From a candidate division KSB3 bacterium (lineage in GTDB: Bacteria; Moduliflexota; Moduliflexia; Moduliflexales; Moduliflexaceae), in assembly GCA_002748425.1 (NCBI GenBank), contig PDSJ01000010.1, forward strand, positions 123,643-187,642: a stretch of 64,000 nt of DNA, in the 5' to 3' direction. This document shows, in pieces, positions 1 through 7,468 of this stretch (its first letter is position 1; each line of letters starts with the position of its first letter). A model generated the notes under the pieces. That model was not told the origin of the DNA. It saw nothing but the letters and a program-made list of their open reading frames with translations, and ran no database searches. The position numbers were made by a program, and so were the translations under genes.

Positions 1-459
1 ATAGCGAATTTCCTGTGTTTCAGGATTGATAAGCCGTAGCCAAAAATCCCGTTGTTCTGAAATATGCGCCTTCCATGAGAACGTGAGAAAAGCCGGACGG
101 CTTTGAAAAGCGTCTCCCCAAGCGCAAGAAATGTCGATAGCCCCATCTTCCAGAGGAAAGGAATACTGCTGAATGGGGATATCCTGAGCTGTGACTGCCT
201 GACCCGCCCATTGGGGTTCCCAGACCGGGGAAAGCCAGTATAACAGCTGTCCTTTTCTATTTGTTAAGGCAGTATGTGTCAATTTTTTTCGAATAGCTGC
301 ATAACATTTATTACCGTTCAGACCCATGTGTTGTAATGCCTGTTCGATATCTTCGAGCGGCATGGCCTCGATCACATCATAATCCTGTTCTAAATTCGTG
401 ATGAGCTTCGTGAATTCATGTTTAAGTACCTTGTTGACCTCTTGCTTTAAGCTTGTCAT
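1..459 (-). CDS. Hypothetical protein, partial: ATG at 457-459, runs off the window edge. Overlaps the sigma-factor stop as ATGA, so it is probably co-transcribed and could be an anti-sigma or partner protein.
   Basis: Manual translation of the minus strand from 459 to 1 gives an uninterrupted frame of more than 150 aa (MTSLKQEVNKVLKHEFTKLITNLEQDYDVIEAMPLEDIEQALQHMGLNGNKCYAAIRKKL...). It is absent from the ORF track only because it has no stop inside the window. The ATG overlaps the TGA of the upstream sigma gene. Confidence 0.4.
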   Translation of the reverse strand, partial: MTSLKQEVNKVLKHEFTKLITNLEQDYDVIEAMPLEDIEQALQHMGLNGNKCYAAIRKKLTHTALTNRKGQLLYWLSPVWEPQWAGQAVTAQDIPIQQYSFPLEDGAIDISCAWGDAFQSRPAFLTFSWKAHISEQRDFWLRLINPETQEIRY

Positions 460-1271
460 TGATATTCTCCTTCTGATAACTGCTCGTACAAGCGTTTCAG
501 ACATGCATTGCTTTTCAATCTTCTATTTGCGTTGTAGACGTGTGTGATTGGAATTTTGAGCTCAGCTGCGATGTCGCGGGCTTTGGTACCATACGAGGAA
601 AAACAGTATTTCAGGATTTCCGTCAGTTCCTTGTCCTGTTTTACACAGTCTAGCATATGCTCCTGTAGCTTGAGTTCATTCAGTTCTTTCAGGTGTTTCC
701 AGACGATTGCGCGCGCTTTGTCCCAGGCCTGTCCCAGATAGTTTCCGCCTACGCCTTCTGACCTGTTGCCGGGGGGAATATCGTCATTGATGCGATCGAG
801 CATGTACGTGATGACTTGTTCAAGCGCCGCATCATCTCCTCGATCCTGAAAAATTCTGTTTCGCAAGGCTGCGATCGTGTGCTCGTCGAGGGTCTCCACA
901 GCCTCGATACCGTCAAGCAGCCTCTGCTCCGGTTCCTGTGCACATTCCTCATTTACTTCCCAGTCAATAACCTCCTCCAAGACATAGACATGCTTGGCGA
1001 TTACTGCTTTCGTAGTCAGATGATTGACTTTGCTCCAGACGATATTCCGAAGGCAGTGAGGCAAAGAGACTCTGTCCTGTGGCCAGCTTCGGCGGCCTTC
1101 AAGCAGGTCTTCCAACGCCTCATGGACGAGGTCTTCCGCCGACGGCGCGCCCGGAATGTTCCGAAGCTGTCTCCCGAATTGTTTCTGCACAGCAAAGAAC
1201 AGTTTTTTCCACTGCTCCTCGCTGAGTTCCTGTAAAGCTGAAAGAAGATATGAAGTCGATTTCGTATTCAT
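456..1271 (-). CDS. Sigma-70 family RNA polymerase sigma factor, ECF-like, with an unusually long linker between regions 2 and 4
   Basis: 271 aa. Region-2-like segment EDLVHEALEDLLEGRRSW...SLPHCLRNIVWSKVNHL. C-terminal region-4-like helix-turn-helix YGTKARDIAAELKIPITHVYNANRRLKSNACLKRL. Confidence 0.6.
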   Translation of the reverse strand: MNTKSTSYLLSALQELSEEQWKKLFFAVQKQFGRQLRNIPGAPSAEDLVHEALEDLLEGRRSWPQDRVSLPHCLRNIVWSKVNHLTTKAVIAKHVYVLEEVIDWEVNEECAQEPEQRLLDGIEAVETLDEHTIAALRNRIFQDRGDDAALEQVITYMLDRINDDIPPGNRSEGVGGNYLGQAWDKARAIVWKHLKELNELKLQEHMLDCVKQDKELTEILKYCFSSYGTKARDIAAELKIPITHVYNANRRLKSNACLKRLYEQLSEGEYQ

Positions 1272-1546
1272 ACTGAGCTCTTATAAACGTATACCCTAGT
1301 TGGAAAAAAATTTGCCATTGAAGAAAAAAATTGTGAAGGATCGCAAAAAATTCAGCATAGCGGTATAAAAGTGTACAAGGGCGGAAAGGTCAAAAGAAAT
1401 TTCAAAAAAAATTTCCCAGGCACCGTAAAAAATCTAAGAACGCGGTACAGAATGAATGAGCGGGGAATGAGAAATCGAAGATCTTCCGCTTTGGAGATCA
1501 CGTTTCATACACTTATTAACGTTACTATTTATCGGAGGAAAAAATT

Positions 1547-2080
1547 ATGTTACGGAGAATTTGTTTGACTTCCTTAGTTGCTGTCGTATTTACTGTTGCT
1601 CTGAGTTCAATGGTTTTCGCGCAAGGAGGTTCAGCCGCCTTGGCAAAACTTGGCTGGGAGCTGTTGAATAATGAAAACCTGACTGGCGGACTTGGCGATG
1701 CCGGCGGCGAATTGGTTGATGCTGCTGCTGATGCCGGTGAACGGCGTTTACGAGGACGGGAAGAGAATACCGTCTCCACACTCGATTTCGAGGGTTATGC
1801 GGATGTGGATAGAATTACTTCAGATGATAAAGCGCTGATCGATATTAACGTGCTGAATCTTGATAATGTCGATATCGATAATTTGAGAATTAACGCCAAT
1901 GCCCACTTGCAGTCAGTCAACGCCGATGATAGGGCGATGATTGCGGTGAATGGCGTCTATCTGAACGATTTCAAGTCGGAGAGAACGGATATTAAGACGA
2001 CAACAATTGTGAGGGGAAGAATGAAAGCGACCGACAAGGCCAGTATCAGTATCAATACTGTATCCAGCTCGAAATTCTAA
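1547..2080 (+). CDS. Secreted hypothetical protein with an N/D/I-rich repeat region
   Basis: N-terminal signal peptide MLRRICLTSLVAVVFTVALSSMVFAQG. Shine-Dalgarno GGAGG 8 nt upstream of the ATG. C-terminal half is rich in beta-strand-like LIDINVLNLDNVDIDNLRINANAHL motifs. Same length (177 aa) as the neighbouring gene. Confidence 0.6.
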   Translation: MLRRICLTSLVAVVFTVALSSMVFAQGGSAALAKLGWELLNNENLTGGLGDAGGELVDAAADAGERRLRGREENTVSTLDFEGYADVDRITSDDKALIDINVLNLDNVDIDNLRINANAHLQSVNADDRAMIAVNGVYLNDFKSERTDIKTTTIVRGRMKATDKASISINTVSSSKF

Positions 2081-2089
2081 ATATTGCAT

Positions 2090-2125
2090 AGAGGCGGCGT
2101 TAAGAGTGCTGCCTCTTTATTTTAT
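2090..2125 (+). terminator. Rho-independent terminator downstream of the first secreted-protein gene
   Basis: AGAGGCGGCG-TTAAGAG-TGCTGCCTCT forms a roughly 10-bp stem (two G-U pairs) with a 7-nt loop, followed by TTTATTTTAT. Confidence 0.55.
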
Positions 2126-2148
2126 GCTTTTTAGGGAGGAGATGCACT

Positions 2149-2682
2149 ATGAAAACGAAAACGTGGAAGATCATTTTGAGCGTCATCATCGTTCAGCTCT
2201 GTTGTGCTGCTCTTTCCGTATACTCTGAAGAAGGGAAAAGTGCTCAACAGCAACGTCACAGCAAGTTTATGGAACAGCATAAACGCGCTCATGAAAAACG
2301 AATGATCGAAAAGAAAGCTAGTGTGAAATCGAGTACACAGCCTGGTCGGACCTCATACTCCGTCACGATCGTGGATAGTTATGAAGATTGTGCTGGGTTG
2401 GAAGATTTGGGAAATATCAGGGCAAATGGTTCTGTACGGAATATCTATCACGTCACCAGAGTGACAGATCCTCGCATTCGCGCCTCGAAATGCCCCTTAC
2501 TAATTGGGAATATTGACGTGCAGGACGGAAACGTACGAGAAATTGCCACTTATACGGAGATACGAGGATCGATCTTGAGCCGTTCGCAGGATGTCATGCT
2601 TGGAAACATCCGCCTGAAAAACGCCGAAGTTGAGCAAATCAGAAATGTCGTCGAAATCGGGGGAAGCATTGAGATTAAATAA
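2149..2682 (+). CDS. Secreted hypothetical protein with three roughly 30-aa G-N-I repeats (beta-solenoid-like)
   Basis: Signal peptide MKTKTWKIILSVIIVQLCCAALSVYS. Shine-Dalgarno GGGAGGAG upstream. Three repeats: LGNIRANGSVRNIYHVTRVTD / LIGNIDVQDGNVREIATYTEIRGSI / MLGNIRLKNAEVEQIRNVVEIGGSI. Confidence 0.6.
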   Translation: MKTKTWKIILSVIIVQLCCAALSVYSEEGKSAQQQRHSKFMEQHKRAHEKRMIEKKASVKSSTQPGRTSYSVTIVDSYEDCAGLEDLGNIRANGSVRNIYHVTRVTDPRIRASKCPLLIGNIDVQDGNVREIATYTEIRGSILSRSQDVMLGNIRLKNAEVEQIRNVVEIGGSIEIK

Positions 2683-2706
2683 TGGGTACAGGACGAGGAG
2701 AAGAGA

Positions 2707-3843
2707 ATGACAGCGGTATTAAGACAGTGGGGCATTTGGGTGGGACTCGTGATGCTGACCGGATGCCAGCCGACTTTGACGGAAGGTGATCGGGAGTTTC
2801 TGGAATCACAGAGAACGCCGCGAACTAGAGTAACGGAATACAGCACAGCCCTGAAGCGCCTCGGCCGCATTATTAATAAAGGTGGGGGAGGGACTGCCAG
2901 AACCTTTCAGGTAAAACCGATCACCAACCAAAGCGGAGGCGAAGGTATCCCGTTTAATGTTACTGAAATGGTGATTACAAGCATTCAGAACTTATCGGGG
3001 AACGCCTTATATGTGGTTCCCCATTATTTTGACTATGAATCGCAGGATGCTGTGCTGAATACGGGAACGCAGGTTCGGAAGCGTCGTAAACCCGATATCG
3101 TTATTGCCGGGGCTATTACCGAATTCGATCAGGACATTTCCGTAGAGGACAGTGCCTTTGATATCAACCTTTTTGGACCGCTTTCAATTGAGGGGGAAGA
3201 TCTTGATCCGGAAATCGAGTATGCCTTCGATCATGCCAAATCTATTTCACGGATCGCTCTTGACCTTCGTTTGATGAATTATGATAGTACAGTGTTTTAC
3301 CCTGGAAAACAAGTCTCCAATACGATTGTCGTGGCCGAGGTGGAACGTGGAAGCAGCCTTGGCTTCATGATTTATGGATCAGGTATTAGCCGTTCAGGAA
3401 GAATCGCCGTCAGACAGGGCTTACATCAGGCAGTGAGAAATTTAATTGATTACAGCATGTTACAATTAATGGGAATACAGTACACCATCCCGTTTTGGAA
3501 AACGCTTGACAATCGTCATGATTCGTTAGGACAAGAATACCTGGCAGAGTGGCGTCAAGAGTTTTTGAATATTGACGAGCCTATGAAGGTCGGCCGCATT
3601 CAAGCCTGGCTGCTGAACTATGATTTAGGGCCGGTATATGTAGACGGAACCCTGTATCAGGAGATTCCAAAATCTGAATATGGAAAATTCCAGCGAATTA
3701 CACAGGCTTTTGCATTGAAATACCTCTACGAGTACGCTCCTCATTCCAGCTTGATTTCTGATATCGAACAAAGTAATACGTTTCTTTCCGCCGACATGCT
3801 GGTAACACTTTATATGATGCTGATCGAGACATTGCCCTTGTAA
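2707..3843 (+). CDS. CsgG-like outer-membrane lipoprotein (curli-type secretion channel family) with a C-terminal extension
   Basis: Lipoprotein signal ending LTGC. The core DIVIAGAITEFDQDI...RIALDLRLMNYDSTVFYPGKQVSNTIVVAEVERGSSLGFMIYGS...AVRNLIDYSMLQLMG matches the E. coli CsgG architecture (NIMVEGSIIGYESNV...QIAVNLRVVNVSTGEIL...CLMSAIETGVIFLINDG). Lies 24 nt downstream of the second secreted-protein gene. Confidence 0.5.
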   Translation: MTAVLRQWGIWVGLVMLTGCQPTLTEGDREFLESQRTPRTRVTEYSTALKRLGRIINKGGGGTARTFQVKPITNQSGGEGIPFNVTEMVITSIQNLSGNALYVVPHYFDYESQDAVLNTGTQVRKRRKPDIVIAGAITEFDQDISVEDSAFDINLFGPLSIEGEDLDPEIEYAFDHAKSISRIALDLRLMNYDSTVFYPGKQVSNTIVVAEVERGSSLGFMIYGSGISRSGRIAVRQGLHQAVRNLIDYSMLQLMGIQYTIPFWKTLDNRHDSLGQEYLAEWRQEFLNIDEPMKVGRIQAWLLNYDLGPVYVDGTLYQEIPKSEYGKFQRITQAFALKYLYEYAPHSSLISDIEQSNTFLSADMLVTLYMMLIETLPL

Positions 3844-6332
3844 TGGAAGGGAGAGAATGACTTCAAAAAATCCGTTACCAAAGGTGATAAAGGGTGCCCG
3901 AAAGTTCTCTCCATATTGTCCTCTCAGCAGCTGCAGTTTGATTTCGCGCAGGGCCTTGACCGCATTCAAGCCTTGCTTGAGATAGAAAAACATGCCGGCG
4001 CTGATGCCTTTAGCGGATACCGAGTCCACAGACCAGAGTGTGACAGTGGTTGTCATAGTGCCGGCATACATAAAATCCCGCGTGAGGCCCATGATCCCCT
4101 TTCCCTTGCGAAATGTCCCCCGCCCGGTATTGCAGGTCGCAGGTCGAGAAGACATCCGACATTAGAAGGAGATCGTCGGATAAAATCAGAGCCGGTTGGT
4201 CGAGAAGGCTGATTTGTCTAGGAATAAGACCGTGCATCGAAAATAGAAGATGCTGATAATCGTCCAGACTGCCCTGACTGTTCATATGCAACAGGTTCGC
4301 GCGGGACGCGTTTCCCCGAAGCTGCAAGGGTCGGCTGTCTACCGGGGCTTGGAACAGTTCTGCAACCAGTCGAGCTTCTTCCTCGGTCTCCGGAAGCTCG
4401 TTAATCTTTCCGCCCTGAAAGGCTGAGACCACCGATTGAAGTTGTGAGGCTCTTGTGGCTGTTTTGTCTAGGCGTTGATAGAGTTGTTGATGCTCTGGAT
4501 AGGCAAAGGCCAGAAAAGGATAGCGGGAGGCCGGAGCAGCCTACAGCGTATATGAGGAGTTAACAAAAGGCTTTTCCTGGGCGGGAACCGGACTATACTC
4601 GCGCTCGACCGTGCTGTCGATATAATCTGACAGCATGGCGTGGCGCATATCCGCGACTTGTTGTTGAATGGCGTATTCTCCCAATCGGGAGAAGGTACAT
4701 CTGCGTCTGCTGCGTCCCAATGAGCCACAGTATCGTATTTTCCGACATCACATGATACGCCAGCATCAGTTCGTCCGGACGCAGTGTACGGGAGCGGAGT
4801 TCATTTAGGTCGATCGGCTGAGGAAATCGCAGAGCGTAGTACTCAGGGCAGCGGCTCTGCAGTGTGCTGCGTAATGTGCGCTCTTCGCCTTTAAGGGCGG
4901 TAATTCGCCGTTCTAATTCCGTGACTCGCTCAAGCGTCTGCCGGGGGCGAGCAAGTTCGTCCGACAGGTTGTGCTGCATCTGATCGAGCTGTATGCCGAG
5001 TTGTTCTTCGCGCTGGCGAAGCTTATTCGGAACGCCTGCAAAACGGCGGGTGCCGGTTTTGCCCATTTGCTCCAGGAACACGCGTCTCTGTCTGTGTTCG
5101 AATATTTCAAAGGCTTTGCGGTCGTAGCCCTGCCCCGGGTGCTGCTTGGTGCAGTCGGCCCAACAGCGCGAGAAACGCATCATACACCTCGAATTTAGTA
5201 CCCATCACGTTCCGGTAGTCATTGCAGACACGGAATTCAGCGCGTAAGTGTTCGATATGCCCGATCGCCTGTTCATAATGCTGTACGGCCTCCTAGTCGC
5301 GTTGGCGTTCTACTTCTGCGGCTGCCAGCCCGCTCAGTGCTTCCCAGAGTATACTGCGAGGCTGAAGACACCCTCGCCGAGGCGTACACTGCTGTTAAAG
5401 GCGTCATGCACCTGCTGCGTTTTGCCGAGCAGTGCGTAGAGCTTGCCTATCTGCATCAATGAAGTGCTTTGACGCCTCGGCTCCCCTATGGACAGAGCGA
5501 GAGATAGAGACTGCTGAAAGGCCTCCATGGCTTCCTGCATCCGGCCATTATCACGATAAACCATGCCGATCCCCGTCAGGGTCCCGGCCTGCCCCCGGGG
5601 ATCGTTCAGGGTACGCCTGAGCGTCAAGGCATTCTGGTAAAAATCCAGCGCTTGTTCATAATCGTATTGCTTCCGATAGACGACCGCGATATTATTAAGC
5701 GTAGCGGCTTCGCCGCGCCGGTCGCCGACTGTTCGTTTGGCCTTCAGCGCCAACGCGTAATACGACAGTGTTTCGTCATAGTGGCCGAGATGCCAGGAGA
5801 TCGCGCCGATATTGCTGAAGATTCGGCCCTGGGCGCCGATGTCCTGAAGCTGCTCTCGGATCGTCAGCGCTTGACGGTAGCTGTACAGGGCTTCCTGAAA
5901 ACGTCCCCGGCGTTCATACAAATCTCCAATATTGTTCAACACATCAGCCTCCAAGTCGCTGCGCCTAAGCTGCCGATAACGTGCGTGGGCCTGCTGGTAA
6001 TGTTCTAGGGCGGAGAGATCTTCACCAGCGTAAAAGTGAGCGATGCCAAGGTTGGCGAACGCGTGGCCTTCATGTTCAGTCTGCCCGAGCAGATGAGTTA
6101 GGGAAAGGCTCGGGCGATACGCGTCCAGCGCGTCTTCATATCGTTCGAACTCTTCGGACGCCCAGCCCAGCGGATATAGAAACACGCTGATACGCTGTAA
6201 ATTTTTAGAACGCCGGGCTTCTTTCAGGCCGGCTTGCCAAGCTTTCAGGGCAGCGGCGTAGTCTCTACTCTTGAAGGTGGCCTGGCTGTTTTCGCCAAAC
6301 TGGCATAGCACTAAAAGGTATAATTTATGCAT
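3625..6332 (-). pseudogene. Disrupted TPR-CHAT (caspase-like peptidase) gene: TPR repeats 5334-6332, linker 4593-5183, CHAT His region 4010-4432, CHAT Cys region 3870-4155
   Basis: The 332-aa fragment carries tandem TPRs (LNNIGDLYERRGRFQEALYSYRQAL, LNNIAVVYRKQYDYEQALDFYQNAL). The 196-aa fragment has the pre-CHAT motif ELMLAYHVMSENTILWLIGTQ. The 140-aa fragment has LPETEEEARLVAELFQ...YQHLLFSMHGL (His motif). The 176-aa fragment has ATCNTGRG...GLTRDFMYAGTMTTTVTLWSVDS...FRAPFITFGN (Cys motif and C-terminal signature). Fragments sit in different frames; manual translation of 5184-5333 shows several in-frame stops. The C-terminal frame runs 220 nt into the CsgG-like gene on the other strand. Confidence 0.55.
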
Positions 6333-7468
6333 AGATCCAGGTTCACGCCCTCATATATGCGCTGTTCTGCTGATTCTGTGTTAGGGTCACAGTCCAGATG
6401 AACAAACAAGCCTTGACCGAGGAGGGCGATCGAGGGGGTGAGACGATAGTGAAATCCAGCGCCGCCGGCGTAACGCACACGGCGGCCTTCATAGGGAAGA
6501 TCGAGGTCTCTACGTTTCCGCTCGCTTTCGCCGTAATAGCGCAGATCGGCGACAAACGGAATGCTGAAACGCGGCGTCGCGTGATAAAGTAGCTTGAGTG
6601 CCCCAAACAACTCGCTACCGATGCTGTTTTCCGACTCTTCAATCATCTTTCCGCCGATGGATTCTTCGCTTGTAAACTGTGTGATGTATTGCAGAGACAG
6701 CGTCATATCCACAGTATCCAGCACTGCGATTTGAAGATCAGCTCCCGCCGATAATTTGTCTCCAATTTGAAGTGTGTCCGCATCATTTTCCGTGTCGATC
6801 CCGAAGTGTGAGTAGCCGAGATACGCGTGAATGTGTCGGCGGGGGGATTTTTTCCAGCTGTATGCTGCGTGAAGCAGAATTTCATCGCCCGGATCGTACT
6901 CGTTCAAGACTTCATCCCAGCAAAGATCGTACTGCCCGTAGTATACATAGCCGGAATACACTCCGACACTGTGAATACCACTTTCGCGTTCCAAGCCTAG
7001 TGTGGCGCCGAGGTTCAGGCCCTCGTCTAAAATATCGACACGGAACAGATCGTTTTGCTGAAAGTGATCGCGCTGCAGGATCCTTTCAGCGCTGAGGTCG
7101 TCGTTATCAAGATGTGCTTTGCCTGTTGGGAGATTGACAGCAAAATCCATCACGAATCTTATCGGATTTTGAGTCGGGAGCGTATAGCTGTAAATAGCGT
7201 TGATAAAGGTATCCGTGAATCCGGAAAGGGCAAAATCATCATCGCCTTCTCGGCTGAGTTCTGTGTGGGCGTAGGTAGTATCCAGGGTCACGGCAAGAGC
7301 ACCGCGCTCGTAGTCCCATTGTAAGGGCACTGCTGTTTGAAAGCCCGTATGTTTAGGGGAGTCGTCATCGCGAAAGCTGTCGTATTGCAGAACCATACTC
7401 ACATGGCTCTGGCAGAATGCGGAAAGGCTACCGAGTAGCAGCGCCCCGAGCAACAGGGCGCTGTACAC
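6311..7468 (-). CDS. Putative outer-membrane beta-barrel protein
   Basis: Signal peptide MYSALLLGALLLGSLSAFC. Alternating hydrophobic, Y/G-rich composition. C-terminus LCINYTF ends in an aromatic residue, typical of OMP barrels. Overlaps the start of the TPR fragment by 22 nt. Confidence 0.6.
   Translation of the reverse strand: MYSALLLGALLLGSLSAFCQSHVSMVLQYDSFRDDDSPKHTGFQTAVPLQWDYERGALAVTLDTTYAHTELSREGDDDFALSGFTDTFINAIYSYTLPTQNPIRFVMDFAVNLPTGKAHLDNDDLSAERILQRDHFQQNDLFRVDILDEGLNLGATLGLERESGIHSVGVYSGYVYYGQYDLCWDEVLNEYDPGDEILLHAAYSWKKSPRRHIHAYLGYSHFGIDTENDADTLQIGDKLSAGADLQIAVLDTVDMTLSLQYITQFTSEESIGGKMIEESENSIGSELFGALKLLYHATPRFSIPFVADLRYYGESERKRRDLDLPYEGRRVRYAGGAGFHYRLTPSIALLGQGLFVHLDCDPNTESAEQRIYEGVNLDLCINYTF

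Follow-up and report, generated by a model that had tools for sequence, protein, structure and literature searches.

For Gram-negative bacteria, what is known of the export of functional amyloids comes mainly from curli and Fap, the Hfa system being a further CsgG-dependent case; the repeats of curlin comprise ~19–23 amino acids (aa), and the windings r1 and r2 of HET-s are spaced at ~34–36 aa. In the Hfa system, the amyloid-like HfaA depends on HfaB—a homologue of CsgG—for its placement on the surface, with no CsgE/F involved (PMC6707917). The locus dealt with here is found in a stretch of 64,000 nucleotides (nt) of the contig PDSJ01000010.1 (assembly GCA_002748425.1, positions 123,643–187,642 of the forward strand)—designated below, at its full length, as the window—its source being an uncultured KSB3 (Modulibacteria) bacterium, whose genome was assembled from a metagenome and carries the label 'candidate division KSB3 bacterium'. 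It is formed by three genes in the plus strand, i.e. gene A (gene 1; 1547–2080) and gene B (gene 2; 2149–2682), each coding for an exported-type protein of 177 aa, and a third gene (2707–3843) coding for a lipoprotein of 378 aa, with a gene for a sigma-like regulator oriented divergently. Judged from sequences and structural models, the trio appears to be a relative, hitherto undescribed, of the known CsgG-dependent export of β-solenoid subunits. The more specific reading of the locus as a curli/Hfa-like ('type VIII-like') module for the export and assembly of β-solenoid surface fibres is one that we regard as evenly poised between right and wrong. No description of the module was found in the literature searched, which covered DUF4384/CsgG, HET-s, β-solenoids, and curli or amyloid in Moduliflexus/KSB3.

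The lipoprotein belongs to the CsgG family, the relationship being a remote homology that becomes visible through structure and family profiles; a reading of the window made earlier from its sequence alone (the sequence-only reading) had proposed a CsgG-like lipoprotein, and this has been borne out. With the model of the lipoprotein as a query, the Foldseek ranks 1–19 are all occupied by CsgG chains (E down to 4.7e-8), i.e. the best match is CsgG and not LpoB or TolB. A wide profile built from 79 sequences aligns with E. coli CsgG (query sequence identical to PDB 3x2r) at an hhalign probability of 96.1% (E 3.5e-9) over 173 columns, the aligned part beginning at the lipobox and ending at the second hairpin. 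PelC is the second-best structural match, CsgG being ahead of it by both structural methods and by the profile. The closest relatives of the lipoprotein were found in genomes of 'Candidatus Moduliflexus', and the close family is a rare one, 5.8 billion sequences having yielded 14 clusters; its profile, however, matches 610 cluster representatives, defined at 50% identity (E ≤ 0.001, 1.84 billion searched), mostly over residues 1–300. Of these wider relatives, 79 were sampled for domain content, 13 of them giving matches to Pfam CsgG (PF03783; best E 2.2e-8), 25 containing DUF4384 and 20 containing PG_binding_1.

As far as the architecture is concerned, the lipobox L-T-G-C (residues 17–20; 2755–2766) contains Cys20, which is invariant across 79 relatives, the family alignments showing it as invariant in one and conserved at ≥90% in two others. 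It is followed by the CsgG-like α/β core (residues ~40–262; 2824–3492), which lacks the constriction loop and keeps both of the hairpin segments that build the 36-stranded barrel in CsgG, these being colinear. The first hairpin (TM1) is 17 residues longer and has an acidic tip, with the conserved family motif GGG-x-GETD; the second one (TM2) is a long hairpin in the model and contains the conserved motif TIL-x-[YF]-E-[VL]. The C-terminal helical extension (residues ~283–378; 3553–3840), with a 12-residue insertion, resembles a divergent domain of the PG_binding_1 type; this likeness is seen with the wide family alignments, which are needed for it, the narrow profile of the lipoprotein failing against the peptidoglycan-binding domain (hhalign 0.3%). 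None of A, B and the lipoprotein is represented by a model in the curated libraries, and searches with all four window proteins in Pfam, NCBIfam and PDB sequences gave nothing usable. For the related loci discussed below, L001 denotes a contig from the same organism that is longer and covers the window locus, the other L numbers standing for loci of relatives. One of these, L017, has two CsgG-like lipoprotein genes in tandem with overlapping ends (5170–6099 and 6096–7307, +), no A- or B-type gene having been detected upstream of them.

The A protein is a short and degenerate member of a family with HET-s-like tandem repeats. It starts with a hydrophobic signal-type segment, and its repeat region (residues 89–173; 1811–2065) consists of the windings ITSDDKALIDINV / VNADDRAMIAVNGV / MKATDKASISINTV, i.e. 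a ~34-aa repeat with many D, N and S residues. The G-N-I repeat previously ascribed to both 177-aa proteins was not found in A, all three motifs quoted for it belonging to B. A taken alone is not significantly periodic (z = 1.0; 296 of 2000 shuffles reach its score), so that its repeat nature is recognised only via a hidden Markov model (HMM) grown from the repeats of A orthologues and run to convergence. This family model matches A twice (E 1.4e-5 and 3.2e-7), the first winding being a motif-level match (E 12). The orthologues are strongly periodic at 33–37 aa and carry from 3 to ~12 windings; when 17 A-type proteins were tested, the converged model identified 2–8 copies in 12, missing those of L008, L010, L021, L023 and L025, although these are strongly periodic. 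At E ≤ 0.01 it matches neither the B proteins nor HET-s nor E. coli CsgA.

Concerning the relation to HET-s, the Pfam model HET-s_218-289 (PF11558) does not match the window A at E ≤ 5, and it reaches sub-threshold scores in four of nine A orthologues (21.9–26.7 bits; cut-off 32.2), the cut-off being exceeded by a distant A relative from L019 (38.7 bits, E 9.9e-10), where both windings of the model are covered. The A-type repeats and HET-s share the pattern N-x-V-x(5-7)-S-x-V-x-[IV]-G-[SNG]; since their pairwise similarity is weak—26% identity with the Podospora anserina protein, E 1.4, not significant—the likeness may be due to common descent or to convergence. Some relatives of A span 431–1085 aa of pure repeats. 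In L025 (1455–6415, +) two very large signal-peptide proteins of 1085 and 538 aa, made nearly entirely of near-identical 36–38-aa repeats (VLNNANVKQSMNMALGKGATANTGSVTM...), are encoded upstream of a distant CsgG-like gene. A protein of 494 aa in L015 (4116–5600, +) combines A-type repeats (residues ~113–207) with a C-terminal lipase_3-like α/β hydrolase with the motif GHSKG; this fusion suggests that the repeats can carry cargo, as would be expected of a carrier for export or display.

The B protein also begins with a hydrophobic signal-type segment, so that both small proteins are of the exported type, as had been described. It has a basic N-terminal helix and three G-N-I windings of 32 aa each (residues 87–177; 2407–2679), the 32-aa periodicity being significant (z = 5.0; 1 of 2000 shuffles reaches the score). 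Its orthologues contain 3 or 5 windings and a conserved basic N-terminal motif. The structural model (predicted local distance difference test, pLDDT, 74.8 overall and 80–91 in the C-terminal half) exhibits three repeated strand sets, and all structural matches of the C-terminal half are β-helices or solenoids, CsgA fibrils included; this half is thus modelled as a three-rung β-solenoid. The β-solenoid or amyloid-like nature proposed for the two proteins has its counterpart in a modelled solenoid with confirmed G-N-I repeats for B and in a tandem-repeat family with HET-s-like windings for A. A word-indexed homologue search retrieved B alone and a search with the family profile retrieved three proteins; because of so few homologues, the model is based on an alignment of 3 sequences. 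Neither A nor B gave a match to the curlin repeat in Pfam (Curlin_rpt).

The three genes are conserved together. The order A–B–lipoprotein has been found in all eight close loci with upstream sequence (window/L001, L002, L005, L006, L008, L010, L011 and L012). The distant set consists of 15 metagenomic loci with 25–41% identity, found by a scan with a 24-sequence alignment; among the nine of them having an upstream flank, six (L013, L015, L016, L019, L021 and L023) have A-like and/or B-like genes directly upstream, and in a seventh, L025, the genes for the large signal-peptide repeat proteins are present upstream of the lipoprotein gene. By a crude test of whole-protein periodicity, which the window itself fails, signal-peptide proteins periodic at 31–38 aa are encoded next to the lipoprotein in 13 of the 17 loci for which there is an upstream flank. 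The B gene is always contiguous with that of the lipoprotein, either abutting or overlapping it. In all the distant loci the trio occurs without genes for the sigma-like regulator, its partner or the STAND NTPase described below, which, along with its spread over both the close and distant loci, indicates an old and autonomous module. The remark that the locus is not canonical curli holds: no CsgE, CsgF or curlin families are on record in Pfam for the genes within 10 kilobases (L001), NCBIfam likewise having none, and the constriction loop is missing.

All four open reading frames (ORFs) are present at the positions previously described for them. The gaps between the genes are 68 nt (A to B) and 24 nt (B to the lipoprotein gene); the latter two genes are adjacent without any overlap, a correction to their earlier description as a coupled pair. 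The terminator after A, in turn, has been recovered as a terminator- or attenuator-like hairpin followed by the T-run TTTATTTTAT (2090–2116, +). Strong hairpins between A and B are present in 7 of the 8 orthologous loci, and this conservation supports the production of more A than of B and the lipoprotein, i.e. the idea of differential expression has held up. Upstream of A, a pattern scan revealed two copies of a promoter-like bipartite motif, CGCAAAAAA-N12-GGTATA (1342–1367, +) and CGTAAAAAA-N12-GGTACA (1424–1449, +), the second followed by AATGAGCGG. Its consensus is CCGCAAAAAA-N12/13-GGCATA followed by AATGAGAGG, in tandem copies 82–98 nt apart; it has the geometry of a promoter and differs from the sigma-70 consensus. 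The window contains three matches (0.055 expected), the third, inside a minus-strand ORF of 571 aa (14466, +), probably being due to chance. The same intergenic region harbours the motif in L002 (8301), L005 (8322/8420) and L012 (3959/4052) and, in a weaker form, in L006 and L010; in the relatives it is confined to this region.

The divergent gene in the minus strand codes for a sigma-like/helix-turn-helix regulator of 271 aa (456–1271) and is followed by the partner gene, which runs off the window after its 5′ part of 153 codons (1–459) and encodes 188 aa on L001; the reported ATGA stop/start overlap of the two genes is present at 456–459. In seven loci the trio is found together with genes for the sigma-like protein, for the partner of ~190 aa and for an NTPase of the nSTAND1-WD40 type (~1100 aa). 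The partner, with its orthologues in the seven loci (E 8e-26 to 2.7e-47), is translationally coupled to the sigma-like gene in all of them, and gave no Pfam match, transmembrane segment or known anti-sigma domain; in most loci its gene also overlaps the STAND gene by 4 nt. In L011 the three genes are found in a different order and orientation, and this rearrangement argues for a functional linkage.

The regulator had been described as a factor like sigma factors of the extracytoplasmic function (ECF) type. A divergent regulator-type gene is indeed there, the ECF label coming, however, from sub-threshold matches only. The sigma-like protein has no Pfam match (Sigma70_r2 and r4 included); with its seven orthologues, 10 of the 12 families matched in NCBIfam are sigma-70/ECF models, all far sub-threshold (best E 4.1e-4), the comparison with SigH from the PDB yielded E 0.45, and that with RpoE was not significant (hhalign 0.7%). 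Similarly, of the proposed 120-aa inter-domain linker the extra segment is real, but it represents an insertion of ~100 aa seen in the window and L008 only; it is absent from the five other orthologues, four of which are 173–186 aa long, while the 268-aa protein from L011 has a C-terminal extension instead.

The gene of the STAND NTPase on L001 (3695–7051, −) comes next after the partner gene, its orthologues being those of L002, L005, L008, L010 and L011. The L001 protein has an N-terminal region of ~207 aa without a domain match and a single hydrophobic helix (residues ~668–686) between the NTPase and the WD40 propeller. Six full-length STAND proteins were scanned, and in five of them this helix passes the threshold, the same segment being present in L002. 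Owing to the single helix between the two parts, the WD40 propeller is probably periplasmic, which would make it an unusual, membrane-spanning STAND protein.

The proposed mechanism may be outlined as follows. The lipoprotein would oligomerise into a ring or pore of the outer membrane tethered to peptidoglycan, and A and B would cross this pore to polymerise outside through end-to-end stacking of their windings. A would represent the major subunit, made in excess since its gene is promoter-proximal and followed by the conserved attenuating hairpin. B, the minor subunit, might serve as a pore-proximal nucleator, adaptor or anchor, a role suggested by its gene always neighbouring that of the lipoprotein and by the conserved basic N-terminal motif, for which the acidic tip (IEGEDLD) of the lipoprotein hairpin could be a docking site. 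In the Modulibacteria clade, the dedicated sigma-like factor would drive the expression via the CCGCAAAAAA-N12/13-GGCATA motif and might itself be controlled, through the ~190-aa partner, by the membrane-spanning nSTAND1 NTPase. Fibre formation, amyloid character and secretion are properties that we infer from the sequences.

Several observations weigh against this reading. The lipoprotein itself has no match in Pfam (E ≤ 1), NCBIfam or PDB sequence searches, and its narrow profile reaches just 16.9% with CsgG (hhalign). The region of the first hairpin is modelled at pLDDT <50. Throughout the lipoprotein family ~10 residues are deleted opposite the constriction loop of E. coli CsgG (QFKPYPASNF), CsgG-like translocators having been reported to require this loop (PMC4594475). 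The A protein of the window is degenerate, with just two significant repeats, the glycine of the core motif replaced by asparagine and the HET-s match lacking. A and B are not detectably related—hhalign of the two families aligned the signal peptides only—and a relationship like that of CsgA and CsgB is, therefore, unsupported. Finally, the sigma-like protein, with its sub-threshold matches only, is probably a very divergent ECF sigma factor, and it is a putative reader of the bipartite motif.

To these should be added the peptidoglycan-binding, DUF4384 and OmpA partners, which would also fit a purely periplasmic ring. They lead to the main rival explanation, a periplasmic scaffold, in which the CsgG-like protein would form a peptidoglycan-tethered ring below the outer membrane—similarly to PelC and the flagellar outer-membrane rings—with A and B being non-secreted solenoids. 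The absent constriction loop, the low-confidence and highly acidic region of the first hairpin, the fusions of relatives to PG_binding_1, DUF4384 or OmpA domains, and the separate DUF4384-OmpA genes in the neighbourhood all agree with a scaffold. On the other hand, CsgG rather than PelC is clearly the closest match by all three comparisons, both hairpin segments are kept with their conserved motifs whereas PelC lacks them, and the pure-repeat A relatives of 431–1085 aa together with the lipase-like fusion fit extracellular fibres or displayed cargo better. On balance, the scaffold is considered unlikely, although more deserving of attention than the remaining rivals.

A conflict or immunity system of the NLR (STAND) type appears distinctly improbable. 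It would use the STAND-WD40 protein as a sensor and A and B as amyloid signalling or effector partners, in the manner of the fungal NWD2/HET-S or the bacterial BASS pairs, and it accords with the nSTAND1-WD40 NTPase in the conserved neighbourhood of seven loci, with the genes for caspase, TIR, DUF4384 and CHAT proteins near several loci, and with the match of A-type repeats to the HET-s prion-domain model. nSTAND1 has been described in predicted conflict systems (PMC8195603, PMC10907252). A and B, however, carry signal peptides and hence are exported, whereas the NTPase part of the STAND protein is cytoplasmic; amyloid templating would need a repeat in the receptor, but the A-repeat HMM matches none of the STAND, partner and sigma-like proteins; and the trio lacks all three of these genes in every distant locus. 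A known anti-phage system has been rejected, too, since no PADLOC defence model was matched except for weak P-loop and MotB hits.

LptA, which forms head-to-tail oligomers, likewise contains G-N-V motifs, and with the UniRef name of both A and B ('Organic solvent tolerance-like N-terminal domain-containing protein') and a weak NCBIfam match of B to LptC (E 0.15) this would favour LptA/OstA-like β-jellyroll bridges across the periplasm, the locus being a device for the transport of lipid or of the lipopolysaccharide type; this reading has, nevertheless, been rejected as highly improbable, because Pfam OstA/LptD_N is not matched at E ≤ 1, the B family aligns with E. coli LptA at 0.4% only (hhalign), the structural matches of B are β-helices or solenoids, and regular tandem repeats of 32–37 aa in 3 to 12 copies are foreign to Lpt.

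If the module does make fibres, the export and assembly reading would define a third CsgG-dependent system, with ~34-aa, three-strand HET-s-like windings as the subunit architecture, a HET-s-type solenoid serving as an extracellular building block in bacteria. Its channel would do without the constriction thought essential for CsgG, which would be relevant to substrate selection and transport by CsgG-type pores and would be of interest for nanopore engineering. Since the wider family of the lipoprotein is a large one lacking annotation, an assigned function would extend to hundreds of protein clusters. As a regulatory design, a transmembrane STAND-WD40 NTPase coupled to a sigma-like factor would be out of the ordinary. 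Surface fibres could also be of practical importance in wastewater reactors, in which the KSB3 phylum is responsible for filamentous bulking. A still broader version—a widespread fibre system combining HET-s-type tandem windings, a constriction-less, peptidoglycan-tethered branch of CsgG and, in KSB3, a STAND-WD40/sigma/partner switch—is rather doubtful; in that version the STAND receptor would control the production of an amyloid rather than cell death.

As for the surroundings of the module, genes for DUF4384, DUF4384-OmpA and OmpA proteins recur near it (L001, 349–3566, −; L002, L006, L008 and L010), and in some loci there are caspase (Peptidase_C14) or TIR genes. In the window, a TPR-CHAT gene (3865–6308, −) convergent on the lipoprotein gene is broken: its intact 996-aa orthologue from L002 aligns across three reading frames, crossing an in-frame stop between the ORFs 5334–6332 and 4593–5183, so that it is either a pseudogene or a product of assembly errors. 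Just upstream of it lies an ORF of 385 aa (6311–7468, −) with a signal-type N-terminus and a C-terminus (...INYTF) resembling that of an outer-membrane β-barrel.

A comparison with the known systems closes the description. PelC, likewise a lipoprotein, shares the fold superfamily and forms a periplasmic ring below the outer membrane; it is, however, devoid of the two hairpin segments and acts together with the PelB barrel in the export of polysaccharide, not of repeat proteins. With HET-s (PF11558), the module has in common the period of ~34–36 aa, the shared sequence pattern, one A relative above the Pfam threshold and an adjacent STAND-WD40 gene. HET-s differs in being a cytoplasmic domain of two windings to which a HeLo or Bell effector is fused, whereas in the module the motif occurs in arrays of 3–12 copies on Sec-exported proteins and the STAND protein is without a matching motif.

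The resemblance to curli comprises a CsgG-fold lipoprotein with detectable remote homology, two small Sec-exported proteins with imperfect repeats, predicted to be β-solenoids and encoded beside it, a terminator-like hairpin separating the gene for the major subunit from the downstream genes, and a dedicated divergent regulator. In contrast to curli, the repeats of the module are 32–37 aa long and unrelated in sequence to those of curlin, A and B are not related to each other as CsgA and CsgB are, the genes for CsgE, CsgF and CsgC are missing, and the lipoprotein has an added domain of the peptidoglycan-binding type and does not have the Tyr-Asn-Phe constriction loop; the regulation, moreover, would involve a sigma-like protein and a STAND NTPase instead of a response regulator of the CsgD type. 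Like the module, HfaA/HfaB/HfaD of Caulobacter crescentus is a three-gene arrangement, with a small amyloid-like protein and a second protein placed on the surface via HfaB (PMC6707917). This likeness is drawn from published descriptions; HfaA is curlin-like rather than HET-s-like, and Hfa anchors a polysaccharide holdfast, whereas nothing ties the module to a polysaccharide.

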